DNA of 52,278 nt from Candidatus Latescibacterota bacterium (GTDB taxonomy: Bacteria > Latescibacterota > UBA2968), in the NCBI GenBank assembly GCA_038279365.1, contig JAYODI010000006.1:86278-138555 (forward strand). The letters run 5' to 3'. Both the position numbers and the translations under genes were made by a program. Positions 1 through 17,497 of the stretch are shown piece by piece; positions within the stretch are counted from its first letter, which is position 1; each line of letters opens with the position of its first letter. The notes under the pieces are model-generated. The model was given only the letters and a program-made list of their open reading frames with translations, was not told the DNA's origin and made no database searches.

Positions 1-135
1 GGCGGGGGCGTCGTTTTTTCATTTGGCCCGTATCACATCAACCTTCGCGCCACCAAAATGACAGGCAAAGCAGAAGACAAAACAGTAACCCTTTCAGCAT
101 TTAACATACACGGTGCTTTTACGGCCGAGTTCTAA
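1..135 (+). CDS. 3' end of a gene entering the window; probable outer-membrane beta-barrel protein (partial)
   Basis: Frame 1 is open from base 1 to TAA at 133-135: GGGVVFSFGPYHINLRATKMTGKAEDKTVTLSAFNIHGAFTAEF*. It has alternating hydrophobic residues and a terminal Phe (beta-signal-like), and a hairpin terminator follows. Confidence 0.5.
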   Translation, partial: GGGVVFSFGPYHINLRATKMTGKAEDKTVTLSAFNIHGAFTAEF

Positions 136-180
136 ACAAAAAACATTTGATTAATTATGTTTACCGGAAGCATAAAGTCA

Positions 181-223
181 AAAAAGCAAACCCCAGCCTA
201 TTTTTGGGCTGGGGTTTATTTTT
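181..223. terminator. Bidirectional intrinsic terminator between convergent genes
   Basis: Inverted repeat AAACCCCAGCC ... GGCTGGGGTTT, flanked by an A-rich run on the left and a T-rich run on the right. Confidence 0.8.
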
Positions 224-234
224 GATTCACAACA

Positions 235-987
235 TCAATTGGCATAAGGCGTCGATGATTGCGGCGGAGGCGTCAACGCTTGACGAATCATTAAACCAAA
301 TGCCCGTGCAAAAATAATCATAATCAAAAACCAAAAAAACGAAGCAACAACAATGCCTACATGAGGCAAAAAACCAAGTATGAGATTCCCCATCATAGAC
401 ACACCAAACAAACCAAAACACGTTTGAATATATGCCCCAGAAACCACGCGCTTTAAATCGGCCCACAATGGACCTGGTTCAAAAGCTGCCCACAACCGAC
501 CTTCGGCAGCATAGCGGGTAAACACCACAGGAAAAAAGCCGTAAAAAAATATCATGGCCAATATAAGCAAAAAAGAAAGAGGGCCCGCACTTTCAGGGTC
601 ATCCATACTGGGTGTCCACCCCAATATAGAAATGAGAGCCCCCAAACCAAATGCAGCCAAAAAACAATATCCCACAGCAATCAAAAACAACCAAAAACCA
701 GCCAAGGCATAATCTCGCCAAGCAAACCAATCGTACAAAACAAGTTCTTCTGTGCCATTTAAGCCATCGATGAAGACCCGATATAAATACCCCCAAGCAA
801 TCAAAAACACGCCCAACCCCGCCAATGTGAATACCCCCCCCACAATGGGATCGACCATTCCCATCAGCATCGCGCTCAAAGCCAAGGTCGGCAACAAATT
901 CATAATGCCACCAGGCAATACCTTTTGCCACCATTTGGGTGTATTCAAAATTAATTTAAAGTGCTGAATTAAAAAAAGCCCCAGCAT
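235..987 (-). CDS. DUF4013-like multi-pass membrane protein
   Basis: Hydrophobic ORF with GYLYRV..G....L..W and PVVFTRYAAEGRLWAAF patterns typical of DUF4013. The ATG at 987 avoids overlap with the upstream CGS gene; the track start at 1179 overlaps it. Confidence 0.65.
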   Translation of the reverse strand: MLGLFLIQHFKLILNTPKWWQKVLPGGIMNLLPTLALSAMLMGMVDPIVGGVFTLAGLGVFLIAWGYLYRVFIDGLNGTEELVLYDWFAWRDYALAGFWLFLIAVGYCFLAAFGLGALISILGWTPSMDDPESAGPLSFLLILAMIFFYGFFPVVFTRYAAEGRLWAAFEPGPLWADLKRVVSGAYIQTCFGLFGVSMMGNLILGFLPHVGIVVASFFWFLIMIIFARAFGLMIRQALTPPPQSSTPYAN

Positions 988-1000
988 AAACCATCCTGTC

Positions 1001-2188
1001 TTAAGCCAATGCCTGTGCAAAATCTGCGAGAATATCTTCGGTGTCTTCAATGCCAACCGCCACCCGCACAAGTTCATCTGCAATGCCAATGGCCAACCGA
1101 TCTTCCCGATCCAATTCATAATAAGAAATAGACGCCGGGTGAGACACAATACTCTCAACCCCACCCAAACTGGCGCCAATACACGGAATTTTTAAACGGT
1201 CAATAAACGCCAAAGTACCCGCTTGATCGGTGTCCAGGTCAAAACTCACCACACCACCAAACCCACGCATTTGGGCCTTTGCAATTTCATAATGTGGGTG
1301 CGTCTCCAAACCAGGGTAATAAACGCGTTTTATTTTGGGATGCCCATCTAAAAATTGTGCCAAAGCCAAAGTCGTTTCATTGTGGCGTTGCATCCGCAAA
1401 GGGAATGTCTTCAAACCACGAATCAGCAAATATGCACAATGCGGATCGACCACACCGCCCAAAATACCCCGATAATCCCGAATGGCTCCAACCAAAAGCT
1501 CGCTACCGGCTATCACACCTGCCATCAAATCGTTGTGTCCACCAAAATATTTGGTGGCACTGTGAATTACCAGATCAATGCCAAACTCTAATGGACGCTG
1601 ATTAAACGGCGTTGCAAAAGTGCTATCAATAATGGTCTTAACACGATGTTTTTTGGCAATAGCAACCACACGTTCCAAATCAATCACATTGAGATGTGGA
1701 TTGGTTGGCGATTCAGAAACCAACACCCGCGTATTGTCTTGGATAGCACATTCAAGGGCTTCATAATCACCCGCATGGACGAAGGTTGTTTCGATACCAA
1801 ATTTGCGCAAAACCATTTTGCAAAATTGCGCCGTTTTACGATAACAATCATCCATCATCACAACATGTTGCCCAGTAGAAAGCATGGCCAATAATGCTGT
1901 GGTCACTGCCCCCATACCCGACGAAAACAATATCGCGGCTTCGGCGCCTTCTATTTCTGCCAATTTTTTTTCAGCTATATGTTGGGTCGGATTGCCATAT
2001 CGGCCATAATCAATCTGGGGATTTTCCCCTCCCACAAAGTCCAGAACGGCTTGGGTGTTTTCAAAAACATAGGTCGAAGTTTGGGCAATGGGTACCGTTA
2101 ATGAATTTTTCCAATGCCCTTTTTCTTCTCCACCGTGAATGGCACGGGTAGATGTACACACCACATCACGCGCTTGATCTTCGGACAT
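1001..2188 (-). CDS. metB: Cystathionine gamma-synthase, plant-type (Cys/Met metabolism PLP enzyme)
   Basis: Motifs YGRYGNPT, SSGMGA, DCYRKT, ESPTNP, DSTFATP, HSATKYFGGHND (PLP Lys) and SLGGVES. RBS GAGGAG upstream; preceded by a SAM riboswitch. Confidence 0.85.
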   Translation of the reverse strand: MSEDQARDVVCTSTRAIHGGEEKGHWKNSLTVPIAQTSTYVFENTQAVLDFVGGENPQIDYGRYGNPTQHIAEKKLAEIEGAEAAILFSSGMGAVTTALLAMLSTGQHVVMMDDCYRKTAQFCKMVLRKFGIETTFVHAGDYEALECAIQDNTRVLVSESPTNPHLNVIDLERVVAIAKKHRVKTIIDSTFATPFNQRPLEFGIDLVIHSATKYFGGHNDLMAGVIAGSELLVGAIRDYRGILGGVVDPHCAYLLIRGLKTFPLRMQRHNETTLALAQFLDGHPKIKRVYYPGLETHPHYEIAKAQMRGFGGVVSFDLDTDQAGTLAFIDRLKIPCIGASLGGVESIVSHPASISYYELDREDRLAIGIADELVRVAVGIEDTEDILADFAQALA

Positions 2189-2207
2189 ACTCTACATCTC
2201 CTCATAC

Positions 2208-2239
2208 AAAAAACGGGACTGCCGCTAAGCAAGTCCCGT
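2208..2239 (-). terminator. Second terminator-like hairpin in the metB leader
   Basis: Minus strand ACGGGAC-T-TGC-TTAGCG-GCA-GTCCCGT followed by a T run, just upstream of the RBS. Confidence 0.65.
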
Positions 2240-2248
2240 ATCATACGC

Positions 2249-2275
2249 AAAAAAACCGGTCTAAAAAGCCCGGTG
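2249..2275 (-). terminator. Riboswitch-associated intrinsic terminator
   Basis: Minus strand ACCGGGCT-TTTT-AGACCGGT followed by a T run, directly after the aptamer. Confidence 0.7.
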
Positions 2276-2276
2276 A

Positions 2277-2330
2277 CTTTTTAGCGACTTGTTTAGAGTG
2301 GCTGCAATATGACGCAAATCACCACTTCCC
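2277..2330 (-). ncRNA. SAM-II (SAM_alpha-type) riboswitch aptamer
   Basis: Minus strand GGAAGTGGTGATTTGCGTCATATTGCAGCCACTCTAAACAAGTCGCTAAAAAG matches the SAM-II pattern GTGGTGATTTG...TTGCAGCCAC..TAAACAA.TCGCTAAA. P1 is AGTGG/CCACT. It lies upstream of a methionine biosynthesis gene. Confidence 0.88.
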
Positions 2331-2364
2331 GATCAATGTTGTAACCCAATGTAACCAAAAGGTC

Positions 2365-3726
2365 TTAGCCTGTCAACTCTTGGTTCTTTTCAATGGCGCG
2401 AAAGATCGCATCGCGCACAAAATCTGCTTTGGGCGGCAAAACCACAGGCTCATTACGCAAATGAGCAGAAACCCCATGTGCTTTGAGAGTATCCTGGTGA
2501 TAACCCAATTTAAATTCTGTAAATTTCAACCCATGGGCCGTTGAAATGACAACAACACGATCGCGCTTTTTAATCACACCCCGATCGACCAATTTAAATA
2601 ATGCTGCAAAAGCTACGCCCGTATGTGGGCAAGTAAACAACCCTGTACGATCTGCACGCGCTGCGGCATCGGCCAATTCTTGTTCGGTTGCCTGCTCCAC
2701 AATACCGCCAAAAGACTTGAGTGTATCAATCGCTTTTTCGCGACTTACAGGATTTCCTATTTGAATGGCATTGGCCAATGTGGGCTTGGCTGGAACTGCT
2801 TCAAAGCTGTCAAAATTTTTCATATAGCTTTGATACAACGGATTGGCCTGAGCACTTTGTGCAACCACAATACGCGGCATTTTGTCAATGAGCCCTATAG
2901 CCTGCATTTCGCGAAATCCCTTGCCCAGTGCGCTTACATTGCCCAAGTTGCCACCAGGTATCACAATCCAGTCGGGCACTTCCCAATCAAACTGTTGTAC
3001 CAATTCAAAGCTGATCGTCTTTTGGCCTTCAACCCGCAAAGAGTTCATAGAATTGGCCAAATAAATATTCTCTTTCAAACAAATTTCCTGCACCAATGTC
3101 ATACACCCATCAAAATCCGTTTCCAAACTCAAAACCAACGCCCCATTTGCCAAAGGTTGAAGCAATTGTGCGGTCGAAATCTTATCCTTTGGCAAAAACA
3201 CAATCGATTGAATACCCGCCGCTGCAGCATAAGCCGCCAAAGCTGCAGACGTATCCCCTGTGGACGCACACGCCACAGCCGGAACCTGTTGGCCATTGGC
3301 AATCATCTGCTTGACCATAGACACCAAAACGGTCATGCCCAAATCTTTAAAAGAACCTGTATGACTGTTGCCACACTGCTTCACCCAAAGTTCATCCACC
3401 CCAATTTCTTTGCCCAAGCGATCTGCCCAAAAAAGATTGCTCCCCCCCTCAAACATTGACACCACATTGGCATTGTCTACCGTTGGGCAAACCAACTCCT
3501 TTTTCCCCCACACAGAGCTGCCATAAGGCCACTCTGTACGCATATAGCGTTGATCAAACAGGTCACGCCAAGCATCTGCCGAACGTGTCTTGAGTGCTTC
3601 AATATCGTGCGCAACTTCCAACAACCCGCCACATGTTGGGCACTCATAAATCACATCGGTGAGCGGATACTTGCCTTCACACCCTCGAAAGCAACGAAAC
3701 CAAGATTGAAACTGTGCGTCACCCAT
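2365..3726 (-). CDS. thrC: Threonine synthase, plant-like class
   Basis: Motifs [11 protein letters not shown] (PLP Lys), [24 protein letters not shown] and STAHGLKF; N-terminal [18 protein letters not shown] as in plant threonine synthases. Confidence 0.93.
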
Positions 3727-3815
3727 ACGTAAATCCTTCGATCAAATTTTAATTATCGTTCAAGATCACCAAAAGTTACAACGCTTTAATATAAACCTTC
3801 TCTTCCATCGGGCAA

Positions 3816-3836
3816 ATAAAAAAGCCCTCATCGGGC
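3816..3836 (-). terminator. Weak terminator after the bat operon
   Basis: Minus strand GCCC-GATGA-GGGC followed by TTTTTT; short stem. Confidence 0.4.
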
Positions 3837-3874
3837 ATTTTCAAATCCAACGTTCATCTTCTTAAAAACAACCG

Positions 3875-4636
3875 TTATATGATTCCTAACGCATCACGCT
3901 TCACCCACCCGCCCACACCATTAGACAAGCGCACCAAAAACCAATTTCCTTCTGTGCGTTCCACAAATACTTTGGTGCCTTCATGTAAAACAAAAACCTG
4001 CAAAAAATCATCTCCAGGCCCGCTGCGTCCAAAAGCCTCATCGTTCAAAACAATGGCCTTCTCTTCACCGCGTTGTTGCACTTTAAGGACCAACAAACCA
4101 CCACTGCCAACAAGCCCCACCCCCAACACCACCAACAAAACCATCCAAATAACACGCCTGAATGGAAAAAACAACCACCCAACCAAACCACCCGCTATTC
4201 CAAATACAAAAAAACACAAAAACACAGATAATGTATTGATGCTCCACAAATGATAAATCCAAAGCAAGATGCGTGTCAAAAAATTGGGATCTTCGCTTGT
4301 TTCTTTATCCACCCGACGTGCATTGGCAAACCTCAAATTGGCCAGTATATCTTCATCATTGGGCATCAACCTTAACGCACGTTCATAGGCCAAAATAGCG
4401 TGTCCTAACTGCTCATTTTTATAATAAGCATTGCCCAAGTTATAATACACTTCTCCATTTTGAAGCCCTTGACCAATCACTTGTTCATAAGCAGAAATAG
4501 CCTGTTCATAGTCGCCATTGCGATAATGAACATTACCTTGATTATATAATCCCACCAAACCTTCTGTCGCATCCGTTACAGTGCTCACAGCAAGCAACAT
4601 CAAAACTACAAAACGTAACATTCTCAACCCCGGCAT
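3875..4636 (-). CDS. batE: BatE-like protein (TPR repeats, TM helices, C-terminal SH3-like domain)
   Basis: TPR motifs YYNLGNAYYK and AILAYERAL, two TM helices, and LHEGTKV...W..VRL..G..GWV; last gene of the bat cluster. Confidence 0.85.
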   Translation of the reverse strand: MPGLRMLRFVVLMLLAVSTVTDATEGLVGLYNQGNVHYRNGDYEQAISAYEQVIGQGLQNGEVYYNLGNAYYKNEQLGHAILAYERALRLMPNDEDILANLRFANARRVDKETSEDPNFLTRILLWIYHLWSINTLSVFLCFFVFGIAGGLVGWLFFPFRRVIWMVLLVVLGVGLVGSGGLLVLKVQQRGEEKAIVLNDEAFGRSGPGDDFLQVFVLHEGTKVFVERTEGNWFLVRLSNGVGGWVKRDALGII

Positions 4637-6498
4637 TATATCTCACGCTCCAAATAATCAATCACCTCGACTGCTTTTTCATACAATGCTTTTACTTGCT
4701 GAGCATTCATTTGCCCGGGTGCAAAACGGGCCATATCACATTGTTGAAAAATATGACGTACCTGAACAATGTATTCCTCATCAATGTTTTTATCTTTTAA
4801 TATCTTGCAGGCCTCTTCGGCAGTCATACCTGCGGCAGATCGGTTCAAACGATCGGCCAAAAATTGTGCCACAGACCGATGCAGTTCCGCATGGAAAGCG
4901 GCGCGATCTCCGCCATCCATCAATAGCGAAGCCTCCCCCAATCGTTTTCGAGCTTCAGAGTGTGCGCGACGCCTTCGGGCATAGGCCACATCTCCTTCCA
5001 GCCGCTCTTGGTGTTTGCGATACACATATGCAACCACCACACCCACAACGGGCAGAAATTGCAACAGCCAATAACTGCCACGCTGATACAACAACTGGCT
5101 GTGATCAACCAACTGTTCTCTGTCTGGCTTAATATACCGAATATCTTGCCCCAAAAGCCGAACTTCTTCGCGATTTGCAATCACTTCTGGTTGTGACAAA
5201 TTCCGATTGGGCGTTACGGTAAGTGCAATGGGGCGCGAGGCAACGGTTTCATAACGTTCCTGAACGGGATCAAAAAAGACCAGTTTAAAGGGCGGCAATT
5301 CGACATCCCCTGATTTTTCTGGAATCATCACATATTCAAACGTTTTTTTTCCGCCATAACGCCCACCTTGCACATCGGCCTCTAAAGTCGTCTTGGGGTC
5401 ATAAAAACGAAATTGAGGATCATTTGGACGAACAGGTTCTAATATGGCCTGCAAATTCCCAACACCAACCACATTGACTTTAACAGAAACAGGATCTCCT
5501 GCAAGCACAGCATTTGGCGTTGCATCAACCGTGATATCAAACCGACCTACGACACCCGAAAAACCCTGTGGTGCTCCCGTAGGCAAAGGTTTAACTTCCA
5601 CGGAAATGTCTTCAGATCGCACAGTGACTTGCTGTGTGCGAAAAGGGTCAAACGAATCAAATGGATCAAAACCAAATAAACTTCTCGACCGTGTACGCAT
5701 GGGTATATCACAAACAACTTCCAACTGATCCAATTGGTGGGTACCCCGTGTGGTCGGGAACAAAGCCAACCGTTTCAATTCTGAAACATTATAAGCCCGC
5801 CCATCAACCACTTCACGTTTGAGATCTAAGCGTTTTGCATCAAAAATAGTTTCTGCCCAAAAACCGGTAAATGTGGGTATTTGACCATAATGCACATTGT
5901 TCAAGTCATAACGCGTGTAGAGTTTATACGTAATTCCCACCTGTTCACCCACATAAACCGACTGCTTATCTGGCACAGCCTGCAAAAACAAATTATCTTG
6001 AATTTCCTGAATCTGCTCTGTGCTCAAAGACTGTCCCGGTGAAGGGGTCGGTCGCGTTTGTGCTTGCCCTGTGGCTTTGATCACTTCAATACGTAAAGAA
6101 GACGACTGATAGGTTTTTCCTTCATGTATGACCCTAGCTGGCCCCAAAACAAAAGACCCTTCTTTTTCGGTGCGAAAAGAAAAGGCATACGTCGTTGTTC
6201 GGGTCGTTGACATCGCACCATTCACAATACTGATGGAGGTAGATGTAGAAGACGTGCTACCTACCAATTGTAGGCCATTGGGCGATGGCACTTCGGGTGC
6301 GGGCAAGCCACTTATCTGTTGTGCTTCCACCGACACCGTAAATTGAACAATCTCACCCACCTCAACACGCGAACGATCAACCGATGCATCCATGGATACC
6401 TGTGCCTGAATATTTTGCACCGCAAACAGTACCAAGCACAAACTCAGCATCCAATATTTATTTACAATATCCATCTCGTTACCAATTTTAAAGGCCAT
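4636..6498 (-). CDS. batD: BatD oxygen-tolerance protein (Ig-like BatD repeats plus C-terminal TM)
   Basis: Signal peptide, STSISIVNG, VYVGEQV..TYKLY, GFWAE, FSGVVGRF, DIRYIK and CDMARFAP. The start may be the downstream ATG (MDIV). Confidence 0.88.
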   Translation of the reverse strand: MAFKIGNEMDIVNKYWMLSLCLVLFAVQNIQAQVSMDASVDRSRVEVGEIVQFTVSVEAQQISGLPAPEVPSPNGLQLVGSTSSTSTSISIVNGAMSTTRTTTYAFSFRTEKEGSFVLGPARVIHEGKTYQSSSLRIEVIKATGQAQTRPTPSPGQSLSTEQIQEIQDNLFLQAVPDKQSVYVGEQVGITYKLYTRYDLNNVHYGQIPTFTGFWAETIFDAKRLDLKREVVDGRAYNVSELKRLALFPTTRGTHQLDQLEVVCDIPMRTRSRSLFGFDPFDSFDPFRTQQVTVRSEDISVEVKPLPTGAPQGFSGVVGRFDITVDATPNAVLAGDPVSVKVNVVGVGNLQAILEPVRPNDPQFRFYDPKTTLEADVQGGRYGGKKTFEYVMIPEKSGDVELPPFKLVFFDPVQERYETVASRPIALTVTPNRNLSQPEVIANREEVRLLGQDIRYIKPDREQLVDHSQLLYQRGSYWLLQFLPVVGVVVAYVYRKHQERLEGDVAYARRRRAHSEARKRLGEASLLMDGGDRAAFHAELHRSVAQFLADRLNRSAAGMTAEEACKILKDKNIDEEYIVQVRHIFQQCDMARFAPGQMNAQQVKALYEKAVEVIDYLEREI

Positions 6499-6527
6499 TT
6501 AATACGTATCTTGTTTATCCCCAAAAG

Positions 6528-7385
6528 CTACCACGCATTGCCATTATAACGCCGTCCAGAAACCTTTATTTTACGTCGTTTTTGCGATGCTTCATCTCGG
6601 TCTTTCATTGCATCTAAAATACGCGCCGCTTCTTCTTGTGTCAATTCCCCAGGCTGTCCTTGGGCTTGCTGTGGATTCTGCTGATCGGCATTTGGGTCTT
6701 GCTTGTCCTGATTCTGTTGACCGTCCTTAGTCTGATCTTGATCTTGTTGTTGCTTTTGTTCCTGATCCTGCTGGTCTTGGTCTTCTTTATTACCCTGATC
6801 TTGTTTTTCCTGCTGGTCTTGATCCTGTTGTTGTTCTTGATCTTTGTTTTCTTGATTTTGGTCTTGTTGTTTATCTTGGTCCTGGTTCCCTTGTTTGTCT
6901 TGATTCTGATCTTGTTTATTGTCTTGGTTCTTGTCTTGGTTTTGCTGTTGCTGTTGCATTTTTTCCAATGCCAATTCCAAATTGACTTTGGCATCTTGAT
7001 CTTTGGGGTTTTTCATCAACGACTTTTTATAGGCACCAACGGCTTCTTGGTATTTTTCTTGCCTGAAAAACGCATTGCCCAAATTATAATACGCCTCAGC
7101 ACTTAAGCTCTGATTGTCAGATTCAACCACACGCCCCAACTCCTGTGCGGCTTCTTCATATTTGCCCTGCTTATACAATGCGTCACCCACATTAAAGCGC
7201 AGTTCCGAGCGACTGGGCGCATTTTGTTGGGCTTCCAAATACCGCTTCAATGCCGCATCATATTCGCCCTTGCCAAACAAATCATTGCCTTCTTGGTTTT
7301 TCTTTGCAACGGGGTCTAAAAATGTAAATCCCCAAAAAGGCAATAACAAAATCACCATTAAAAGCCGCACTAAAAAATTCCGCAT
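6528..7385 (-). CDS. batC: BatC-like TPR protein with Q/D/N/K-rich linker
   Basis: TPRs (YYNLGNAFFRQEKYQEAVGAYKKSL, AKVNLELA), low-complexity linker, LTQEEAARILDAM and C-terminal W. The ATG at 7385 has an AGGA upstream. Confidence 0.85.
   Translation of the reverse strand: MRNFLVRLLMVILLLPFWGFTFLDPVAKKNQEGNDLFGKGEYDAALKRYLEAQQNAPSRSELRFNVGDALYKQGKYEEAAQELGRVVESDNQSLSAEAYYNLGNAFFRQEKYQEAVGAYKKSLMKNPKDQDAKVNLELALEKMQQQQQNQDKNQDNKQDQNQDKQGNQDQDKQQDQNQENKDQEQQQDQDQQEKQDQGNKEDQDQQDQEQKQQQDQDQTKDGQQNQDKQDPNADQQNPQQAQGQPGELTQEEAARILDAMKDRDEASQKRRKIKVSGRRYNGNAW
6660..6960 (-). repeat. Low-complexity coding repeat (Q-D-K-N) in batC
   Basis: Degenerate tcttg/tgatc units on the + strand encode QDQDKQQDQNQ-like repeats. 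Confidence 0.8.
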
Positions 7386-7420
7386 CACCCTATTCCTTAT
7401 CGTTGTCAACACAGGACACA

Positions 7421-8446
7421 CTACTGTTCAAACCGCCCACGCCACTCTTCTTTTTCTCTTCGCCGATCCGACAACAGCGCTTCGCCCAAAAAACAAATAA
7501 GAGCAAGCCCCAATGGCCACTGAAAACGATGTTTATATTGTGAATATTTGCGTGATCCCAAATCTCTCTTCTCCATTTGAGAAATTTGCTCATACACGGC
7601 TTGAAGGCCAATGCCCCCCCCACCCGCACGCACATATAACCCACCAGACTCTTCGGCAATGGCACGCAATGTCGCTTCATCTAAGCGGGTCTTAACGATA
7701 TTCCCCGCTTCATCTTTTAAGTAATCGACCCGATCCCCTTCACGTATCGGTATCAGCTCTCCATCAGGTGTACCAACCCCTACCACAAAAATGCGAACGC
7801 CTACTTTGGCGGCTTCCTGAGCGACAGCAATAGGATCGTCCACGTGGTTTTCACCATCTGTAATTAAGATCAGTGCTTGGTATTTTCCTTCCGACGAACC
7901 AAAGGCCCGAATGCTATTGCGCATCGCATCAGCCAAAGCCGTTCCTTGAACCGGAATCAAATCTGTTGTTGCCGAATCGAGAAACAATTTGGCAGCACCA
8001 TAATCTAAAGTGAGCGGGCACAAAACATGGCTGCGCCCTGCAAATGCAATAAGACCAACCCGATCACCCTCTAACCGATCAATTAAATCTGCAATCTCAT
8101 ACCGTGCACGCGTTAAACGGTTAGGCCGAATATCTTCGGCCAGCATGCTCAAAGACGTATCTAAGGCAATAACCAAATCCACCCCTCGACGCTGTATCAA
8201 TTCCATTTGTGTGCCAAATTGTGGTTGCACCAATGCCAAAACAAGAAACAAAAAACCAGCAACCACCAATCCAGCCTTTGTCCACTGCCGTCCTAAGCTG
8301 GCCATATGGGTCAACTTGGCCACCAGCACAGGGTTACCAAATGAGGCCAATGCACGTTTTTTACGCCTAAAACCCCATATGTAAAACAACACCAATATGG
8401 GCACAAAAATCAAAAACCAAAAAGCAAATGGATCACCAAATCGCAT
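7421..8446 (-). CDS. batB: BatB vWA-domain membrane protein
   Basis: MIDAS DTSLSM, PNRL, DRVGLIAFAG, CPLTLDY, QGTAL and ITDGENH. Confidence 0.88.
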   Translation of the reverse strand: MRFGDPFAFWFLIFVPILVLFYIWGFRRKKRALASFGNPVLVAKLTHMASLGRQWTKAGLVVAGFLFLVLALVQPQFGTQMELIQRRGVDLVIALDTSLSMLAEDIRPNRLTRARYEIADLIDRLEGDRVGLIAFAGRSHVLCPLTLDYGAAKLFLDSATTDLIPVQGTALADAMRNSIRAFGSSEGKYQALILITDGENHVDDPIAVAQEAAKVGVRIFVVGVGTPDGELIPIREGDRVDYLKDEAGNIVKTRLDEATLRAIAEESGGLYVRAGGGGIGLQAVYEQISQMEKRDLGSRKYSQYKHRFQWPLGLALICFLGEALLSDRRREKEEWRGRFEQ

Positions 8447-9445
8447 TTAGGGCAACCTCCGAAAACGCGTGGTGGCCAACACAACCTCAAGCATTAAAAA
8501 AAACAAACCTGGCCACAAAAATTTCTCAAACAGTTCTTGATAATCCACATATTCGCGTACTTTGATTTCCGTCTTCTCCATGTCACCAATTTCTGCATAA
8601 ATCGATTCTAATTTTTCTGCACTTGTCGCACGAAAATATTTTCCACCCGTAATATCGGCCACCTCTTTTAACGTCTCTTCATCAATTTCTACTTTAACAG
8701 GTACAAATCGTTTTCCAAAAATGGTACTTTGTTCTTGCATAATGGTGCCTTCACTGCCTGCACCGATGGTATAAATACGCACCCCAACGGCCTTGGCTGC
8801 TTTGGCCGCTGTCATAGGGTCAATTTCACCCCGATTATTTTTGCCATCTGTCAACAAGATGATCACTTTGCTTTGTGCCTCAGACTCACGCAAGCGGTTC
8901 ACTGCTGTTGCAATGCCCAAACCAATGGCTGTGCCATCCCAATCGCCTTCGGCAATCTCAACACCATCCAAAAACCCCTTAAACACATCATAATCCAAAG
9001 TCAATGGGCATTGTGTATAACTTTCCCCCGCAAAGACCACCAAACCCAATCGGTCATTTGCTCGCCCCCCCACAAATTCGGCAACCACATCTTTAGATAC
9101 GGCCAAGCGCGTTCTGCGCTGGTTGGCCAAATCTTTGGCCTCCATACTGCTCGACACATCCAAGGCCAACACAATATCAATGCCTTGGCTTAAAATCTCA
9201 CGGCCTTCACGGCCCGATTGGGGGCGCGCCATTGCCACAATCAACAACACCAACCCCAAACAACGAAACACCATCAAACTATGTCGCAATTTTAAAGAAA
9301 GGGATGGGCCAATCTGTTTAAATGCACCAATACCCGAAAACCGAATGCGCCCTCTTTTTTGTCGTTCTTGGTAAATATAACGATAAACCAACACGGGAAT
9401 AATTAGCAGCAACACCAACCACTCTGGGTCTTGAAATCGAATCAT
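8447..9445 (-). CDS. batA: BatA vWA-domain membrane protein
   Basis: ARPQ, MIDAS DVSSSM, QCPLTLDY, DGTAIG, LLTDGKNN and TGGKYFRA. Confidence 0.9.
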   Translation of the reverse strand: MIRFQDPEWLVLLLIIPVLVYRYIYQERQKRGRIRFSGIGAFKQIGPSLSLKLRHSLMVFRCLGLVLLIVAMARPQSGREGREILSQGIDIVLALDVSSSMEAKDLANQRRTRLAVSKDVVAEFVGGRANDRLGLVVFAGESYTQCPLTLDYDVFKGFLDGVEIAEGDWDGTAIGLGIATAVNRLRESEAQSKVIILLTDGKNNRGEIDPMTAAKAAKAVGVRIYTIGAGSEGTIMQEQSTIFGKRFVPVKVEIDEETLKEVADITGGKYFRATSAEKLESIYAEIGDMEKTEIKVREYVDYQELFEKFLWPGLFFLMLEVVLATTRFRRLP

Positions 9446-10389
9446 GAAATCACACCCTTTGCTTCTGGTGATTTTTCTTTTCCTTTTGAGCTAATCAACA
9501 CCGTCAAAATGGCTTCTACGGTTGGTAAGGCGTTTTTCATCACATCCACTGTAGGCGTAAATTTTGCAAACTTAACCATATCTGCTTGCATCAAAAAAGC
9601 CTCTACTTGTTGCACAAAATCACTGTCTACACCATCTGCACGCAAATCGCGTGCAATTTCAAATGTCGTTTCTTCAACGGCGCGAACCGTGGTTTTTGCT
9701 TCAATACATCTTCTCAAAATATCCGAAAGCAAAGAATAATAGGTTTTGTATTGTTGTTGCTCGATCAAATTCATGTTTTTGATTTTGTTTAATTCTGCCA
9801 TCCAATCAATTGGAGGAGCCGGAGGCACAATTGTGGGGCGTTTCTTGCGCTTGCGCAACCACCACAGACCAACTGCAATTCCAATGAGAACCGCACCCAG
9901 TACCAACCAAGCCCAAAGAGGTATTGTTGCCTCAATCTGAACAGGTGGTTTGACATCCCGAATTTCAGACTCTCCTGCAGGTTTCACGCTTTGAATGGTT
10001 ACCGAAATGGCACGCGAAGCAACGCGCCCAGAGTCACCGTTGCTCAAAACATAACGCAACCCCAAGGGGGGAACTTCAAATGTGCCCAATTGAAAAATGG
10101 TCAGCACCACATCTGTGGTTTCTTGGATGCGCCCACTATCTTGGGAAAGTGTTTGTACGGGTCGCTTTTCCAATATTTCAAATGGTGTCGGGAAATGATC
10201 ATCCCACTCAAAAGTTGTGACATCGCCAGCATCACGCAACACGCGCATACGAAAAACAATGGGGTCACCGATTGTAATGGTATCTCGGTTGACCCCTGCT
10301 CGAAAATCAACTGCGGCATCAACCGGAAGGACACTGCCAAAATATCCAACCCACACCGTCAGTAAAAATAAAAAAATTCTGTTCATCAC
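9442..10389 (-). CDS. Bat-cluster membrane protein (BatD-like N-terminus, DUF4381-like)
   Basis: Signal peptide, ITIGDP, IRDVKPP, a TM helix, YYSLLSDILR, ETTFEI and ADMVKFAKF; usual position before batA. Confidence 0.75.
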   Translation of the reverse strand: MMNRIFLFLLTVWVGYFGSVLPVDAAVDFRAGVNRDTITIGDPIVFRMRVLRDAGDVTTFEWDDHFPTPFEILEKRPVQTLSQDSGRIQETTDVVLTIFQLGTFEVPPLGLRYVLSNGDSGRVASRAISVTIQSVKPAGESEIRDVKPPVQIEATIPLWAWLVLGAVLIGIAVGLWWLRKRKKRPTIVPPAPPIDWMAELNKIKNMNLIEQQQYKTYYSLLSDILRRCIEAKTTVRAVEETTFEIARDLRADGVDSDFVQQVEAFLMQADMVKFAKFTPTVDVMKNALPTVEAILTVLISSKGKEKSPEAKGVIS

Positions 10390-10415
10390 GTCCTATTCTG
10401 CTCCCAGTTTTATCC

Positions 10416-11762
10416 CTATTGGGAGATACCACCCAATGGCAAACGCAAGCCCGCCATCACACCATAATCAAATGAAAACACCTCATCCGAACCCTGCATC
10501 ATCCCATACCAACCATCATAGCCTTGCCCAATCAATACCTCTCTTACCAATGCCTCCCCACGCCACAACGAAACAGTCAACACCGGTTGGGTCAAACCAT
10601 ATGCGTCTAAATTCTGTTCGGCCCCCATAAAGTCTGCTACGGCCATTGTATGAACCTTATCAATCCAAGTTCCCACAATGTCCTCTGTTGCAACATATCC
10701 TGCAGGGTTTACCACCTTCCAATTTCCCGCTTCCAATACACACGTCACCGTACTATCTGGGTAGGCCAACTGAATTTTATCAATGCCCTTACGATCAAAT
10801 TCAAAAACCCGTTTGTATCGAATAGAGCCCAAATCAATATTTAAAAAGTCCGTCATAAACGGTTCAACCAGAAAAACATAGGGTCTTTCTGACGAACTGG
10901 CGTACCATAAGCGAGAGCGCACATCTTCAACCGTTTTGCCCAGTGTAAGCGTGCGTGCCTCACCATTTTTATTCCCCACTGTCAATTGGTAACTTGGCGT
11001 GTCAAAGCCATACAGTGTAGGGTCTTCAAATGTTTCGGCAACAATATCAACCACACGCTCAGCCCGTACCGTACCCAAAATATTGTTAATTTCTGCCTCA
11101 TCCCCCATATACGCCCCAGGAGAGACAATTTGCCATCTAAAACCATTTCGAACCATTTCAAAGGTCTTACCATGATGCTTTAAAACCACTCTTTGAACCA
11201 GATCCAAATCAAACGGTAAAATACGTTGATCGCGAAGATCTAACAATTTTAAATCAAATCGATTTCGAAAAGACCGCTGTGTCAATACAATTTGATTGCC
11301 ACCCGACCAACTCAAATACGCCGCACGTCCAGCAGGATTGTCATCGCCAAAAAGCAACCAAATATCGTCTCCAGACTGACTCTCAAAACGCAATTCAACA
11401 CGCGGAGGTTGCAAGCCAAAAGCTGCCAAATCTGTTTTGTCATAAGCTTCCGCATCAACAATAACGCGTCCACGCTCCACGGCTCTGGCAGCCGTTACCA
11501 TAGCCTCAAACTGTTCCCAATCGCCAGGTGTTTCAATGGGTTCTTTAATGAGCCAATCGTTGCCTTGTTTTTCAGCCACAAATTTACCAAACCGATTCAC
11601 AATTGTAAACTTGGCAACAGTTTGACGCTTGACGTCCAAAAACTCCTTTTGAGCGGCAATTGCTTTTTGCTCTTCTTCAATTTTGGGGCGTTCATAAAAA
11701 AACACAAATCCAACCAAAAGCAACAAACAAACACCCAACAAACCCGTTATTTTAGGACTCAT
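10416..11762 (-). CDS. DUF4340 domain protein
   Basis: N-terminal TM helix and three repeats ending (A/L)(F/Y)G(L/F)..P; lies next to the GldG-like gene. Confidence 0.8.
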   Translation of the reverse strand: MSPKITGLLGVCLLLLVGFVFFYERPKIEEEQKAIAAQKEFLDVKRQTVAKFTIVNRFGKFVAEKQGNDWLIKEPIETPGDWEQFEAMVTAARAVERGRVIVDAEAYDKTDLAAFGLQPPRVELRFESQSGDDIWLLFGDDNPAGRAAYLSWSGGNQIVLTQRSFRNRFDLKLLDLRDQRILPFDLDLVQRVVLKHHGKTFEMVRNGFRWQIVSPGAYMGDEAEINNILGTVRAERVVDIVAETFEDPTLYGFDTPSYQLTVGNKNGEARTLTLGKTVEDVRSRLWYASSSERPYVFLVEPFMTDFLNIDLGSIRYKRVFEFDRKGIDKIQLAYPDSTVTCVLEAGNWKVVNPAGYVATEDIVGTWIDKVHTMAVADFMGAEQNLDAYGLTQPVLTVSLWRGEALVREVLIGQGYDGWYGMMQGSDEVFSFDYGVMAGLRLPLGGISQ

Positions 11763-11812
11763 ATTTTATCTCTTTGCATAGAAACAACCAACATCTTGCG
11801 TTTAAAGGATCG

Positions 11813-13195
11813 CTAACGACGGCGCAACCAAACACCCACGCCTGCCAAGATAGGTATGAGTGGCAAAACCAACCACGAAACCCACCGAATCCAAAATTCA
11901 TCACCAGGAGCCAGCTCTAAAGGGCGAAACTGTGCCGATTTGGGACGAATGGTAATTTGATCCCGTTCGTTCAACAACCAACTGACAGAATTCATCAACA
12001 AGTCACCATTTCCAGCCACATCAACAAATTGATTGGTGGCAAAGTCGGAATCTCCAAAAACAACCAACCGAGCCCTTGGTGAGCGACGAATCTCTTCTGT
12101 TGTTTTAAAATTTAAAGGCCCAGCAACAGCCATAGACATCCAAAGAGGGCCTGGTTTATCTGCCCCAGAATCATACTTAATTTCTTCAACGCGTTTTTCT
12201 TTTAAGGCATTTAAGTTGGTCTCACTCCAACTGCGTGGCGACGACATGGCCAAGGCAGAAACTTCAGATCCAGGCAGAGACCCCACACGTTCAACAGAAC
12301 GGGTTAATGGGAAAAATGTCATCAGGCCCGAGTGTTTGTCTGTTATGGGATGTTTGCTGTAATTTGCCGTAACAGGCACAGAAAAATCGGCTTCTGGCAA
12401 CGCATTGCTGTTATCCACAATAAAGTCATTTCGCAACCCAACCGACCATTGAAACAACAAAGGCTCCAATCCTGTATCTATGAGTGGGTCGAGTAAAAAT
12501 AAAGCTGCGCCACTTTCATCCAGATATTCCGAAATGGCCCCAATCTCAGATGCCAGCAATGCGCCCTTGGGCCCACCAATAATCAATAAGTCACAATCGC
12601 GAGGCACTTTTTGCACTTGTGCCAAAATCAAGGGTGGGCGCACATCATTATTGTTTTCAATCAACATTTGCTTAAAGCGCTTAAACCCTTTTCCCGTATC
12701 TTGATCAATATTTACCTCGTCGTGCCCACCCAAAAAGTAAACCACTTGACGCGCATCACTTGTAATTCTTGCAATGCCATTGGTCAACGCCTTTTCAGTC
12801 CCTTCAGCAATGCGCTCTTCTTTTTGCCCATATTCTATAATAGATGTGCCATAATTGGTCACCTTATAACGCTTGGCTTCTATGGGTTCTTTGTCAGGAT
12901 CAATTAACCGATAAGAAAAATGCTTTGAATGATAAGCATACTGCTCCAACAATCGTTCAAATTCATCGCGTTCTGTCTCGCGAAAAAAACCAATAACCGT
13001 CAAGCCCTCTTCTAAGTTTTCAAGCAACGAAATCGTCTTAGGCGACAACGTATACAACCCCTGCTGAGTCAAATCATATCTTGTGTAGTAGCGTGTCGAT
13101 AAAAAATTAACCACAGCCAATATGCCCAAAGCAATCAACACAGCAGAAAGCGCATTGGAACCATATTTTAACGTGCGCCGACTAAATAATGCCAT
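11813..13195 (-). CDS. GldG-family ABC transporter auxiliary component
   Basis: RYDLT...YTLS..T, IDPDKEP, VYFLGGHDE, HPIT, RLVVFGDSDF, GNGDLLMNSVSWL and a C-terminal TM followed by RRR. Confidence 0.85.
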   Translation of the reverse strand: MALFSRRTLKYGSNALSAVLIALGILAVVNFLSTRYYTRYDLTQQGLYTLSPKTISLLENLEEGLTVIGFFRETERDEFERLLEQYAYHSKHFSYRLIDPDKEPIEAKRYKVTNYGTSIIEYGQKEERIAEGTEKALTNGIARITSDARQVVYFLGGHDEVNIDQDTGKGFKRFKQMLIENNNDVRPPLILAQVQKVPRDCDLLIIGGPKGALLASEIGAISEYLDESGAALFLLDPLIDTGLEPLLFQWSVGLRNDFIVDNSNALPEADFSVPVTANYSKHPITDKHSGLMTFFPLTRSVERVGSLPGSEVSALAMSSPRSWSETNLNALKEKRVEEIKYDSGADKPGPLWMSMAVAGPLNFKTTEEIRRSPRARLVVFGDSDFATNQFVDVAGNGDLLMNSVSWLLNERDQITIRPKSAQFRPLELAPGDEFWIRWVSWLVLPLIPILAGVGVWLRRR

Positions 13196-13198
13196 CTC

Positions 13199-13972
13199 TT
13201 AAGCCCTCCATCTATGCGACTCAAGCACATTGTGAGTCACAAACAGGAAAAACAAAGTTGCACTTAAAAAGAAGACAATGTCATGGGTATCAACCACCCC
13301 CTGAATCATATCGCGGGTATGTTCGACCAAAGACAAAAATTTCAGTATCACAAAAAATACATCTCCAGCATAACGTGCCGCCCAATCGATCATCCACAAT
13401 AATATGAGCATAAAAAATGACAGCACAGCGGCAATAATCTGATTTTCTGTCAATGATGAAGCCAAAATGCCCACACTAATAAATGTGCCCCCCATCAACA
13501 AAACAGCCAATGCCCCCGAATAAACAGGCCCCCAATCAATGCGTGCATACATAGCCAAAATGCCCAAATAACCAAATGCCAAAAATTCAATCAGTGCATA
13601 TAAAACATAACAGGCCAAAAACTTGCCCATCAAAATTTGCCCCGAAGTAATGGGCGACGTCATCAACAATTCATATGTTCCCCCACGCTTTTCCTCTGCA
13701 TAAAGCCGCATGGTCAACATAGGAATCACAATCATCCAAACAAATGTTTGAAATTCAAAAAAAGATTCCACAACCACTTCATTCACATTTAAGCGCGATT
13801 TCTCTTCATACTCTGCAAATTTTAAAAACACGCTCATGTCGTGAAATTCGAGCACTTGATTTCGAAAAATAAACCCAGTAAACAACAAAAACACCCCCGC
13901 CATCACATAGGCAATGGGAGAACCAAAATAAGAACGCATCTCTTTACCAAATATCGCCAGGACATTGCCCAT
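13199..13972 (-). CDS. GldF-like ABC-2 permease
   Basis: KEMRSYFGSPIAY, PMLTMRLYAEEKRGGTYELLMTSP, GKFLA and SSLTENQIIAA. Confidence 0.88.
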   Translation of the reverse strand: MGNVLAIFGKEMRSYFGSPIAYVMAGVFLLFTGFIFRNQVLEFHDMSVFLKFAEYEEKSRLNVNEVVVESFFEFQTFVWMIVIPMLTMRLYAEEKRGGTYELLMTSPITSGQILMGKFLACYVLYALIEFLAFGYLGILAMYARIDWGPVYSGALAVLLMGGTFISVGILASSLTENQIIAAVLSFFMLILLWMIDWAARYAGDVFFVILKFLSLVEHTRDMIQGVVDTHDIVFFLSATLFFLFVTHNVLESHRWRA

Positions 13973-14910
13973 CAGACCCCCTCCTCACGCGTGGTTAACG
14001 CATGGAAAATTTCTTCCAATGACATATCTTCTCGGCGCATCTCCAATAACCCCATGCCCAATTCTACCACTTTGGCCGATAAAATTGGCCCCCAATCTCG
14101 GTCGGAGGGGCAATCAATAATAATGACATTTTCGCCCTCGTGTGTATCAATAGACACATCAACCACATCTGGCAAATCAGCCAACCCACGCACCGCCACA
14201 GATGCATCTCCCGAAACTCGCACCGCAAATCGCAACGTACCACGCATATTGGCTGTCAAATTTTCGGGGGTATCTATCGCCTCAATTTTGCCATGATTAA
14301 TAATAATAACCCGGTCACAGGTCATTTCTACTTCGGGTAAAATATGGGTGCTCAAAATAACCGTACGCTCTTTGGCCAAGGTGCGAATCAAATTCCGCAC
14401 CTCAATAATCTGATTGGGGTCTAACCCCGATGTTGGCTCATCCATAATAATCACGTCGGGATTATGAATAATGGCCTGCGCCAATCCTACACGCTGACGA
14501 TATCCTTTTGACAACTGTCCAATAAGTTGCCGAGCCCGATCTTTTAAGCCACATTGCTCCAACACTTCAACTATACGACCGGGCTTTTCAGATTTGGACA
14601 CCCCCTTAATATTGGCCACAAAATCCAAATAGGCTTCTACGCGCATATCGGGGTATAAAGGCGGGAGCTCAGGCAAATAACCAATGCGCTTTTTAACCTC
14701 CAAGGGTTCTTCAAAAATGTCAAAGCCTGCAATGCGAGCCGTGCCCTGACTGGCAGGTAAAAAACACGTCAATACCCGCATCGTTGTGGTTTTTCCAGCA
14801 CCATTGGGTCCCAAAAAACCCACAATCTCTCCTTTACCCACTTCAAACGAGATATTGTCTACGGCTGTAAAGGAACCGTATTGTTTGGTTAAATGATCAA
14901 CTTCAATCAC
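13972..14910 (-). CDS. GldA-like ABC transporter ATP-binding protein
   Basis: Walker A GPNGAGKTT, signature LSKGYRQRVG, Walker B IIMDEPT and switch STH. Confidence 0.92.
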   Translation of the reverse strand: MIEVDHLTKQYGSFTAVDNISFEVGKGEIVGFLGPNGAGKTTTMRVLTCFLPASQGTARIAGFDIFEEPLEVKKRIGYLPELPPLYPDMRVEAYLDFVANIKGVSKSEKPGRIVEVLEQCGLKDRARQLIGQLSKGYRQRVGLAQAIIHNPDVIIMDEPTSGLDPNQIIEVRNLIRTLAKERTVILSTHILPEVEMTCDRVIIINHGKIEAIDTPENLTANMRGTLRFAVRVSGDASVAVRGLADLPDVVDVSIDTHEGENVIIIDCPSDRDWGPILSAKVVELGMGLLEMRREDMSLEEIFHALTTREEGV

Positions 14911-14986
14911 AGCAGTCCCCCCATCAAAACATGCACGGCTTCTACGACGATATATCTACGAACACAACATAGACCCAAACCATCCA

Positions 14987-15883
14987 CTAAGCCCGTCTTT
15001 TTTGCGCCCGTCTTTTAAAAAAACGCATTAAAGGTTCTGTATAAGGCTCTTGCATACCAATTTCCACTGTATCAACACCCACCTTGCGAAACATCTGTGT
15101 GCGTTTTTGAGCTGTTTCTATGGCCATGTTTGAAAACAAACGACGCACTTCTGAATCACCAAAATCTACCAACACACCTTCCCCGGTTTCAGCGTCTTCC
15201 AGCTCTACAATACCAATATCTGGCAAATCCACTTCACGAGGATCCGACAAGGCAATGGCTACCAAGTCATGCCTTTTGTTGGCAATACGCAAGGCTTTTT
15301 CATAACCATCCGCCATAAAATCAGAAACCAAAAAAGCCACGCTTTTGCGCCGTGTTACCCGATTCAAATACTCCAAGGCCACACCCAAATTGGTACCGCG
15401 TCGTTTGGGGCGAAAATACAACAATTCTCGGATCACCCGCAAAACGTGTTTTTTCCCTTTTTTAGGCGGAATAAACAACTCCACCTCATCTGTAAAAACA
15501 ATGAGTCCCACACGGTCATTATTTTGAATGGCCGAAAAAGCAAGCAACGCACAAATCTCAACGCCCACCTCACCCTTCATCTGCTCAACGGTACCAAAAT
15601 CTCCCGATGCACTGGCATCGACCATCAACATCACCGTGAGTTCTCGCTCTTCATCAAACACTTTTACATAAGGGTCAGACATACGCGCCGTGACATTCCA
15701 ATCAATCGTGCGAATATCATCTCCCACCTGATATTCACGCACTTCGGCAAATGCCATGCCTTGGCCTTTGAAAACCGAATGATATTCACCTGCAAAGATG
15801 GTATTCACCAAGTTGCGCGTTCGGATCTCAATCCGTTTAACTTTTTTTAATATCTCGGCAGGAATCATAGGCGCATCGGTCAC
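14987..15883 (-). CDS. DUF58 (vWA-like) protein
   Basis: GEYHSVFKGQGMAFAEVREYQVGDDIRTIDWNVTAR, EEREL, DASAS and SDF. Confidence 0.92.
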   Translation of the reverse strand: MTDAPMIPAEILKKVKRIEIRTRNLVNTIFAGEYHSVFKGQGMAFAEVREYQVGDDIRTIDWNVTARMSDPYVKVFDEERELTVMLMVDASASGDFGTVEQMKGEVGVEICALLAFSAIQNNDRVGLIVFTDEVELFIPPKKGKKHVLRVIRELLYFRPKRRGTNLGVALEYLNRVTRRKSVAFLVSDFMADGYEKALRIANKRHDLVAIALSDPREVDLPDIGIVELEDAETGEGVLVDFGDSEVRRLFSNMAIETAQKRTQMFRKVGVDTVEIGMQEPYTEPLMRFFKRRAQKRRA

Positions 15884-15963
15884 AAATCACTGGCAGATTC
15901 AGTCATTGGTCTTAGGTCAATAACAGCAATGACCAGCAACAAAACTTACCACAACACCCTCAA

Positions 15964-16959: not shown

Positions 16960-16977
16960 AAATACCCCACCAATCTG

Positions 16978-17472: not shown

Positions 17473-17497
17473 GTCTCCTTTCCAAAAGGACGTTTGA

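Follow-up and report, generated by a model that had tools for sequence, protein, structure and literature searches.

Organization of the locus

The gene pair described here lies in a 52,278-nt stretch of DNA from a Candidatus Latescibacterota bacterium (assembly GCA_038279365.1, contig JAYODI010000006.1, positions 86,278 to 138,555), which was analyzed over its whole length and is referred to below as the window. On its minus strand, thrC, a gene for a threonine synthase (TS) of the plant type, is followed after a gap of 176 nt by a gene of the cystathionine gamma-synthase (CGS) family, and an aptamer of the SAM-II class of S-adenosylmethionine (SAM) riboswitches is located inside the gap. In plants, TS and CGS compete for O-phosphohomoserine (OPH), and SAM represses CGS expression through the MTO1 nascent-peptide arrest. 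The region of the window probably constitutes a two-gene module for the same OPH branch point. Its principal elements are:

2365..3726, minus strand: thrC, plant-type threonine synthase, 453 amino acids (ORF list, TIGR00260, match to Arabidopsis TS)
2260..2335, minus strand: SAM-II (SAM_alpha) riboswitch aptamer (RF00521)
1001..2188, minus strand: CGS-family gene, plant-type, 395 amino acids (ORF list, PF01053, match to tobacco CGS)

In Pfam, ThrC corresponds to the PALP family (2.4e-61) and the CGS-like protein to Cys_Met_Meta_PP (PF01053, 4.3e-137). ThrC also exceeds the curated NCBIfam cut-off of TIGR00260 (221.6 versus 167.1 bits), and the CGS-like protein stays under the curated cut-off in each of the 25 NCBIfam families shown. 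An Rfam scan of the 52-kb window returned the RF00521 aptamer as its single element. The first-pass annotation of this DNA had quoted motifs of both proteins, including YGRYGNPT and DCYRKT of the CGS; all are present in the translations, and the span given there for the pair, 1001..3726, is exact.

The threonine synthase

A sequence search of solved structures with ThrC gave the Arabidopsis TS (PDB codes 1e5x and 2c2b) as the top match with 544.5 bits, followed by the enzyme of Mycobacterium tuberculosis (2d1f, 186.8 bits), with that of Escherichia coli (1vb3) at only 50.1 bits. The identity to the Arabidopsis enzyme is approximately 58% (~246 of 427 positions, counted by hand on the HMMER match lines). 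This alignment extends over residues 10–436 of the query and 46–468 of the Arabidopsis chain, whereas for the other TS structures the alignment starts no earlier than query residue 80, and for E. coli ThrC it is confined to query residues 122–406. ThrC therefore includes the plant-type N-terminal domain, which is absent from the other solved class-I enzymes. The lysine that binds pyridoxal phosphate (PLP) is K127, within an SFKD motif; it aligns with Arabidopsis K163 and is invariant in the 24 rows of the ThrC alignment.

The predicted structure is in agreement with this placement. The AF2 model of ThrC (pLDDT 79.1) was compared with solved structures by Foldseek, and the top eight matches were all entries of Arabidopsis TS (2c2b, 2c2g and 1e5x), with TMq values of 0.77–0.83 over 412–452 columns at 52–56% identity. 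The other solved class-I enzymes, from Bacillus, Aquifex, Mycobacterium and Thermus, reached a TMq of at most 0.66 over 346–382 columns.

The largest difference from the plant enzyme is found at the extreme N-terminus, where ~45 residues of plant TS are missing from the window ThrC, in which nine residues precede the aligned region. The N-terminal part of the window protein carries a zinc-ribbon-like Cys4 motif (CxxxC...CxxC; C12, C16, C29 and C32, window 3630..3693) that is present in 51–56 of 60 bacterial ThrC rows and in none of four green-lineage rows. The motif appears to stand in bacterial ThrC where plants have their first ~45 residues, and the green-lineage sequences have apparently lost it. 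Otherwise the two groups are close: the window ThrC is identical to the green-lineage TS of Closterium, Musa and Haematococcus at 246–254 of 436–450 aligned positions, and the 64 rows compared (60 bacterial and 4 green-lineage) share 113 invariant columns.

Plant TS is activated allosterically by SAM, which is bound at the dimer interface. To our knowledge, the microbial TS enzymes tested for a response to SAM belong to other subfamilies. Among the columns conserved without exception in the 60 bacterial rows, none was found to differ in all four green-lineage rows; by itself, this comparison says little on SAM sensing.

The CGS-like enzyme

Among solved structures, the top sequence match of the CGS-like protein is tobacco CGS (1qgn and 1i41, 393.7 bits), to which it is approximately 48% identical (~184 of 381 positions, again a hand count of HMMER match lines). 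The best methionine gamma-lyase follows with 332.4 bits, and E. coli MetB (1cs1) scores 245.2 bits. The first-pass annotation had judged both proteins to be more Arabidopsis-like than E. coli-like, and the scores of ThrC and of the CGS, the latter with the tobacco enzyme as its plant reference, bear this out. In NCBIfam, the best row is the methionine gamma-lyase model TIGR01328 (401.3 bits; cut-off 549.7), next to the 'CGS family' model (400.5 bits; cut-off 600); the E. coli-type MetB model TIGR02080 scores 305.2 bits and its cut-off of 504.55 is not reached. The AF2 model of the CGS-like protein has a pLDDT of 61.8, too low for a fold comparison.

The PLP lysine is K213, in the sequence SATKY, and is conserved in all 158 rows of the CGS alignment. 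Two further signatures are formed by residues Y61-G-R-Y-G-N-P-T68 and Y116-R117-K118-T119, in which K118 aligns with K165 of the tobacco enzyme. Work by Steegborn and colleagues in 1999 reportedly showed that plant CGS has a conserved, exposed lysine that holds the distal phosphate of OPH in place and that bacterial enzymes have glycine there; we take this lysine to be tobacco Lys165. The two columns are occupied as follows:

R117 column: R in 8 of 9 rows of the eukaryotic clade and in 16 of 16 rows of the window clade; G in 86 of 105 rows outside the plant-type clade
K118 column: R in 7 and K in 1 of the 9 eukaryotic rows; R in 9 and K in 5 of the 16 rows of the window clade; G in 74 of the 105 rows outside the plant-type clade

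The functional reading of the K118 counts depends on the role attributed to Lys165.

No N-terminal extension of the MTO1 type is found on the window CGS, in which 13 residues precede the aligned catalytic core. The family representative P0255, presumably a plant (angiosperm-like) CGS, has approximately 150 extra N-terminal residues that include the MTO1-like stretch RRNCSNIGVAQVVAASWS, which we take to be the MTO1 region. Unusual domain arrangements were observed in three other representatives: P0259, of the eukaryotic clade, carries a C-terminal CBS domain, P0241 has two Cys_Met_Meta_PP domains in tandem, and in P0386, which belongs to another clade, a short PALP domain is fused to a Cys_Met_Meta_PP domain.

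Distribution, linkage and fusion of the two genes

A scan with the ThrC alignment, using one genome per species, confirmed at least 589 of 600 candidate stretches, and the best 80 of these loci, each of about 20 kb, represent over ten phyla. A plant-type ThrC is thus encoded by at least 589 species-level genomes. The first-pass annotation had described a plant-like branch point encoded as a bacterial gene pair; the pair is no bacterial exception, and it is the plants that carry the bacterial type. The closest homologues of ThrC and CGS among the matches listed are proteins of Latescibacterota metagenome-assembled genomes (MAGs), with 89–95% identity.

In 34 of the best 80 loci, the gene that immediately follows thrC on the same strand is CGS-like. 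The pairs span eight or more named phyla, the names in the records being Latescibacterota, Gemmatimonadota, Methylomirabilota/Rokubacteria, Myxococcota, Acidoferrum, Binatota, Chloroflexota, Verrucomicrobiota, Nitrospinota and Tectimicrobiota. Twenty-seven of the 34 CGS-like genes fall into the clade of the window CGS, six form a divergent second family, and one (locus L076) groups with the fusion proteins described below. The flanks of 17 pair loci differ from phylum to phylum, and none of their 92 flanking ORFs is hom, thrB, metA, metX or metC, so that in these 17 loci the CGS-like gene is paired with thrC alone.

The second family (loci L032, L044, L047, L060, L064 and L072; for example L047 6709..7884) is 39–41% identical to the window CGS. 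It shows the signature Y-R-H-T-R, with L in place of N196 and G in place of S340. Its members come from Nitrospinota, Tectomicrobia and unclassified MAGs and always follow a ThrC clade of their own, with support of 100 in both trees. In the flanks of three of these pairs, a transporter gene of the major facilitator superfamily (MFS) and a cytidylate-kinase-like gene adjoin in L044 and L047, though not in L064.

The ThrC and CGS trees are congruent. CGS adjacency maps to three clades of the 81-row ThrC tree, with support values of 95, 95 and 100, and sub-clades of the two trees mirror each other, as exemplified by the group of fusions and L076, with a value of 100 in both.

The two enzymes are also found on a single polypeptide chain. 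Among 73 ThrC homologues longer than 793 residues, 64 carry both PF00291 and PF01053. ThrC is the N-terminal part (63–71% identical to the window ThrC) and a CGS-like domain the C-terminal part (40–55% identical to the window CGS); a basic linker of ~12–17 residues joins the two in the four main-type proteins with an inspected junction. P0459 and P0460 were dropped as true fusions, their long proline/arginine-rich junctions being taken for frameshift artefacts. The credible fusions amount to 62 clusters of ~848 residues, and the two that bear organism names belong to Nitrospira sp. and Nitrospirota. In L076, labeled Verrucomicrobiia, both genes fall inside the Nitrospirota-type fusion clade and are separated by a stop codon (11240..11420); either a fusion was split secondarily in this locus or the stop codon is a sequencing error.

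The thrC–CGS unit is thus conserved across phyla, co-evolving and sometimes fused. Two enzymes that are rivals for a single substrate in plants are here stably paired and even fused, which is the strongest argument available that both act on OPH. These features, which could not be seen by the first-pass annotation, strengthen the functional link that it proposed, so that its interpretation is partly supported.

Relation to the plant enzymes

The relation to the plant enzymes was analyzed in trees of both families. For ThrC, 67 rows were used (52 of the 81 ThrC rows, 4 green-lineage and 10 fusion rows, and 1 distant outgroup on a very long branch); the green-lineage rows, from Closterium, Musa textilis and Haematococcus, were taken from over-long gene models among the matches to longer proteins. 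The green-lineage TS form a clade with a support of 100 on a long branch that is nested among bacterial ThrCs, its exact neighbors being uncertain (84), and the window clade is located elsewhere in the tree.

The CGS tree was built from the best 150 representatives of 32,544 family members, of which 15 that aligned over fewer than 340 residues were dropped. In the FastTree phylogeny of 158 rows, a 46-row clade (SH-like support 96) comprises the window clade, a nine-row eukaryotic clade that includes P0255, and unnamed bacteria, and 99 other rows stand apart. An IQ-TREE phylogeny of 66 rows separates the plant-type side from the rest with an SH-aLRT of 97 (50 versus 16 rows). Within it, a 33-row set that holds the plant and window groups has an SH-aLRT of 91, a value obtained again when the fusion domains were added. 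A protein-atlas search with ThrC and CGS returned generic bacterial clusters with no plant rows and was uninformative.

These data support the assignment of ThrC and the CGS-like protein to the plant enzyme families rather than to the ordinary E. coli-type ThrC and MetB, as the first-pass annotation had anticipated. The plant enzymes appear as single long branches nested inside bacterial families, which indicates that plants carry a bacterial type, and the window lineage does not appear as their specific sister.

The riboswitch and the predicted control of the CGS gene

The aptamer matches RF00521 with 46.9 bits (gathering threshold 36; E 1.7e-7 for the whole window) over positions 1–79 of the 79-position model. 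The gap and the region preceding the CGS start codon contain the following additional features:

2348..2376, minus strand: promoter-like site TTGACA-17 nt-TACATT (10 of 12 matches)
2249..2284, minus strand: first part of the expression platform, alternative hairpins followed by a U-run at 2255..2249
2208..2239, minus strand: second terminator-like hairpin, ACGGGACU ... AGUCCCGU plus U6 (folds and terminator scan)
2198..2203, minus strand: Shine-Dalgarno sequence GAGGAG, 9 nt ahead of the CGS ATG (2188..2186), read from the sequence

The promoter-like site is the best of seven in the interval 900..4100. Its -35 element is located in the last codons of thrC, and its -10 element ends ~13 nt before the Rfam match. 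A TA[CTGA]ATT hexamer is found ~20 nt ahead of the aptamer core in all eight related leaders. In the Latescibacterota locus L005, an ORF (9537..9914, 125 amino acids, CrcB-like by eye) is inserted between thrC and the promoter with its riboswitch. This insertion and the conserved -10 hexamer suggest that the CGS gene is probably a SAM-controlled transcription unit of its own, although read-through from thrC may occur, as no terminator follows thrC.

The expression platform is predicted to be of a terminator type. The 3' strand of the aptamer, CUAAAAAG, can pair with CUUUUUAG to form a hairpin at 2284..2261, and the alternative to this pairing is a terminator-like ACCGG/CCGGU hairpin at 2274..2255 followed by the U-run at 2255..2249. 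The complement of the aptamer 3' strand, CUUUUU[AG]G, lies inside the hairpin and U-run in all eight leaders, in which the stem sequences differ. When the 3' strand was blocked in constrained folds, mimicking bound SAM, the predicted structure changed from anti-terminator to terminator in the window, L001, L005 and L006. The second hairpin is replaced in L001–L003 by hairpins with other stem sequences at the same position; by eye, pairing between its loop and a portion of the aptamer 3' strand seems feasible. The presence of a promoter-like site and of a terminator-type platform implies that SAM should shut off CGS and not thrC. In Sinorhizobium meliloti, a SAM-II riboswitch ahead of metZ terminates transcription (PMC9373788).

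RF00521 was also found between thrC and CGS in L001–L007, with 39.7–46.2 bits. It was present in seven of eight Latescibacterota loci scanned with Rfam (L013 being the exception) and in none of eight other pair loci. In total, eight of 35 thrC–CGS pairs carry it, all in the Latescibacterota subclade of the window. A purpose-built covariance model, R1, whose RNAalifold structure is probably not the true SAM-II fold, matched only its eight training sequences in 81 sources. The riboswitch is a lineage-specific, local addition; in pairs outside this subclade the genes overlap or are fused. The first-pass annotation had alluded to a riboswitch and proposed that it is used where plants use MTO1. The element is there, on the CGS gene only, and the window CGS has no MTO1 region; among the pairs in general, the riboswitch is local to this subclade.

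Neighboring genes

Downstream of the CGS gene, the window contains a gene for a DUF4013 membrane protein (235..1179, minus strand), and a DUF4013 gene likewise follows CGS in the Latescibacterota loci L002 (12562..13488), L006 (12774..13529) and L007 (12737..13483). The window ORF overlaps the 3' end of the CGS gene, and its true start is therefore probably located further downstream. On the other side of thrC, positions 3875..17472 (minus strand) are occupied by a long run of the Bat/MoxR type that encodes TPR proteins, BatD, two VWA/BatA proteins, a DUF58 protein and a MoxR AAA_3 ATPase; the genes of an ABC transporter set (ABC_tran, ABC-2 permease, ABC_transp_aux and DUF4340) are interspersed among them. 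One of the TPR proteins (6528..7421) has a long low-complexity tail rich in Q, D, N and K. Further along, at 18925..23744 (minus strand), a protein with a DAC domain (c-di-AMP synthase type) adjoins TrkA, TrkH and a TrkA-domain ion channel, and at 36243..41117 (minus strand) a 1624-residue protein combines an FtsX-like permease domain with a weak match to peptidase M28. In the first 41 kb of the window, almost every long ORF is on the minus strand, and the GC skew is below zero in all 26 of the 2-kb windows of 1..52278 (-0.085 to -0.306).

Proposed pathway

In the reading that we consider probable, a homoserine kinase encoded elsewhere would supply OPH to both enzymes. ThrC would convert OPH to threonine, and the CGS-like enzyme would condense OPH with cysteine (or sulfide), thereby committing it to methionine. 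At high SAM, the 3' strand of the aptamer would be locked into the pseudoknot and lost as an anti-terminator, the terminator hairpin would then form, and transcription of CGS would stop. Since thrC lies upstream of the switch, it would be unaffected, and OPH would flow to threonine. The plant control logic would be retained in this scheme, with an RNA switch replacing the MTO1 nascent-peptide mechanism.

Several observations weigh against this scheme or part of it. The case for OPH as the substrate of the bacterial members draws on family membership, one signature and gene linkage. Hacham and colleagues are said to have reported in 2003 that plant CGS also accepts acyl-homoserines, in which case membership in the plant family leaves O-acetyl- and O-succinyl-homoserine possible. 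The position of K118 is occupied by Q in 61 of 64 fusion proteins (DCYRQTRD) and by H in the second family adjacent to thrC, so that K118 alone cannot define the chemistry of the module. No CGS-like match (E <= 1e-20) was found within ~10 kb of thrC in 46 of the 80 loci. Neither thrB nor hom, metA, metX or metC was seen among the other 40 ORFs of the window or in the flanks of the pairs, a search that covered the 52-kb window and loci of ~20 kb. The branch that joins the plant and window CGS clades is supported by SH-aLRT or SH-like values only (91–97), in unrooted trees, and most rows of the CGS trees are unnamed, NCBIfam (E <= 1e-160) having named four of 91 scanned among the 135 tree representatives. 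With regard to the switch, the promoter scan is not significant by itself (seven sites versus a shuffle mean of 5.1), and the second terminator-like hairpin (2239..2208) forms in both modeled states, which misfits a simple switch.

Alternative functions of the CGS-like enzyme

The alternative that survives best, although we regard it as rather unlikely, is ordinary bacterial transsulfuration, in which MetA or MetX encoded elsewhere would provide O-succinyl- or O-acetyl-homoserine and the adjacency to thrC would reflect a loose clustering of aspartate-family genes. The characterized bacterial CGS enzymes are all reported to use acyl-homoserines (PMC6284425). MetA or MetX could be encoded outside the window and the flanks covered here, and the loci with an unpaired thrC and the Q or H that takes the place of the lysine in some related pairs and in fusions are compatible with this function. 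Against it stand the low score for TIGR02080, well under its cut-off, the preference for tobacco CGS over 1cs1 (394 versus 245 bits), and the constant association with thrC in the 17 loci, never with metA, metX, hom or thrB. Moreover, loose clustering explains neither the persistence of the pair across phyla, nor its co-evolution, nor its fusion in 62 clusters.

Less probable still is direct sulfhydrylation, by which OPH and sulfide would be converted to homocysteine in one step and no cystathionine beta-lyase would be needed. Enzymes of this family often perform both reactions, no metC-like gene accompanies the pair in the window or the flanks, and models of O-succinylhomoserine sulfhydrylases score about as high as CGS models (NF006003, 356.6 bits). 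An OPH sulfhydrylase activity has been reported for plant CGS, as the title of the paper states (Thompson et al. 1982). The sequence does not separate cysteine from sulfide as the nucleophile, and the closest characterized relative is a CGS.

A catabolic role as a methionine gamma-lyase or cystathionine gamma-lyase is very improbable: TIGR01328 is the best NCBIfam row and methionine gamma-lyases are the second-best group in the PDB (332 bits), but the former score is under the curated cut-off, the window CGS belongs to a different clade from P0292, the sole named methionine gamma-lyase representative, which passes TIGR01328, a SAM riboswitch of the OFF type would presumably be counter-productive on a gene for methionine degradation, and the linkage to thrC would be left unexplained.

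Comparison with known systems

A module for the OPH branch point, as favored here, has its closest counterpart in the plant system formed by TS (MTO2 in Arabidopsis) and CGS (MTO1/CGS1). Both bacterial proteins are homologous to these enzymes and have them as their best matches among solved structures. The N-terminal domain is common to both threonine synthases from Arabidopsis residue 46 on, the CGS shares the Y-R-K-T signature, and repression by SAM is confined to the CGS side, here as predicted from the position of the riboswitch. By contrast, ~45 residues at the start of the crystallized plant enzyme are missing from the bacterial ThrC, which has a Cys4 motif, and in the bacterial CGS the MTO1 N-terminal region is missing and the control element is a SAM-II riboswitch. 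The bacterial genes are adjacent or fused, whereas those of plants are dispersed.

A second point of comparison is the MetM/MetO route of Streptomyces, which reportedly leads from O-phospho-L-homoserine to homocysteine (work of Hasebe and colleagues, 2024). Like this route, the pathway proposed for the window would be a bacterial one that makes methionine from OPH and bypasses MetA/MetX. Unlike in MetM/MetO, the candidate OPH-using enzyme of the window is of the CGS family (fold type I), and ThrC is a genuine threonine synthase. MetM is described as a distant ThrC homologue (preprint 10.64898/2026.09.15.751699) that works with a sulfur-carrier protein (GapMind 2026, PMC13759103). In the preprint, use of an OPH route is ascribed to plants (CGS) and to some Streptomyces (MetM/MetO) alone, and Table 2 of GapMind 2026 lists MetM/MetO and no OPH-dependent bacterial CGS.

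The riboswitch belongs to the same aptamer family as the alpha-proteobacterial SAM-II switches (S. meliloti metZ and metA) and is likewise located ahead of a gene for homocysteine formation. Unlike these, it occurs in Latescibacterota, in the gap between thrC and CGS, and is followed by two successive terminator-like hairpins. E. coli ThrC (class II, 1vb3) and MetB (1cs1) catalyze the same overall reactions with the same PLP folds as the window pair, but they differ from it in that they match with only 50 and 245 bits. MetB has G-G where the window CGS has R-K, and E. coli ThrC is without the plant-type N-terminal domain in the aligned span.

Significance

OPH-dependent transsulfuration and a SAM-sensitive TS are textbook features of plants. 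In the searchable literature, which leaves most subscription journals outside its coverage, neither a bacterial CGS dependent on OPH nor a ThrC–CGS fusion was found to be described. In two recent sources, OPH-dependent transsulfuration and a SAM-sensitive TS are treated as plant peculiarities, and the only bacterial OPH route cited is the unrelated MetM/MetO (PMC6957218; 10.64898/2026.09.15.751699). The enzyme families and the riboswitch class are known, and what appears to be new is a bacterial operon or fusion context that implies a plant-style pathway.

A broader interpretation, which we put forward tentatively and hold to be less likely than its negation, joins these observations into an old and widespread bacterial module governed by SAM. 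It would consist of a SAM-activated TS and an OPH-dependent CGS, encoded by overlapping genes or by the Nitrospirota fusion, and would replace the MetA/MetX route. Where there is no riboswitch, SAM would determine the threonine/methionine split through its effect on the ThrC half alone, and plants would have inherited both genes from a bacterium that carried the pair. Overlapping or fused genes without a riboswitch would make sense if SAM acts allosterically on ThrC, which is an argument from design and not evidence. If this interpretation were true, plants would owe their control of methionine and threonine synthesis to bacteria rather than having invented it.

The proposed OPH branch point, if true, would mean that a large and mostly uncultured share of bacteria, including Latescibacterota, Methylomirabilota, Nitrospirota, Myxococcota, Gemmatimonadota and others, makes methionine in the plant way, and it would fill the 'missing metA/metX' gaps in pathway reconstructions. 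The ThrC–CGS fusion would be a ready object for studying the balance of two enzymes that compete for one substrate, and the origin of the plant branch point and of its SAM logic would become directly testable with easily expressed bacterial proteins.

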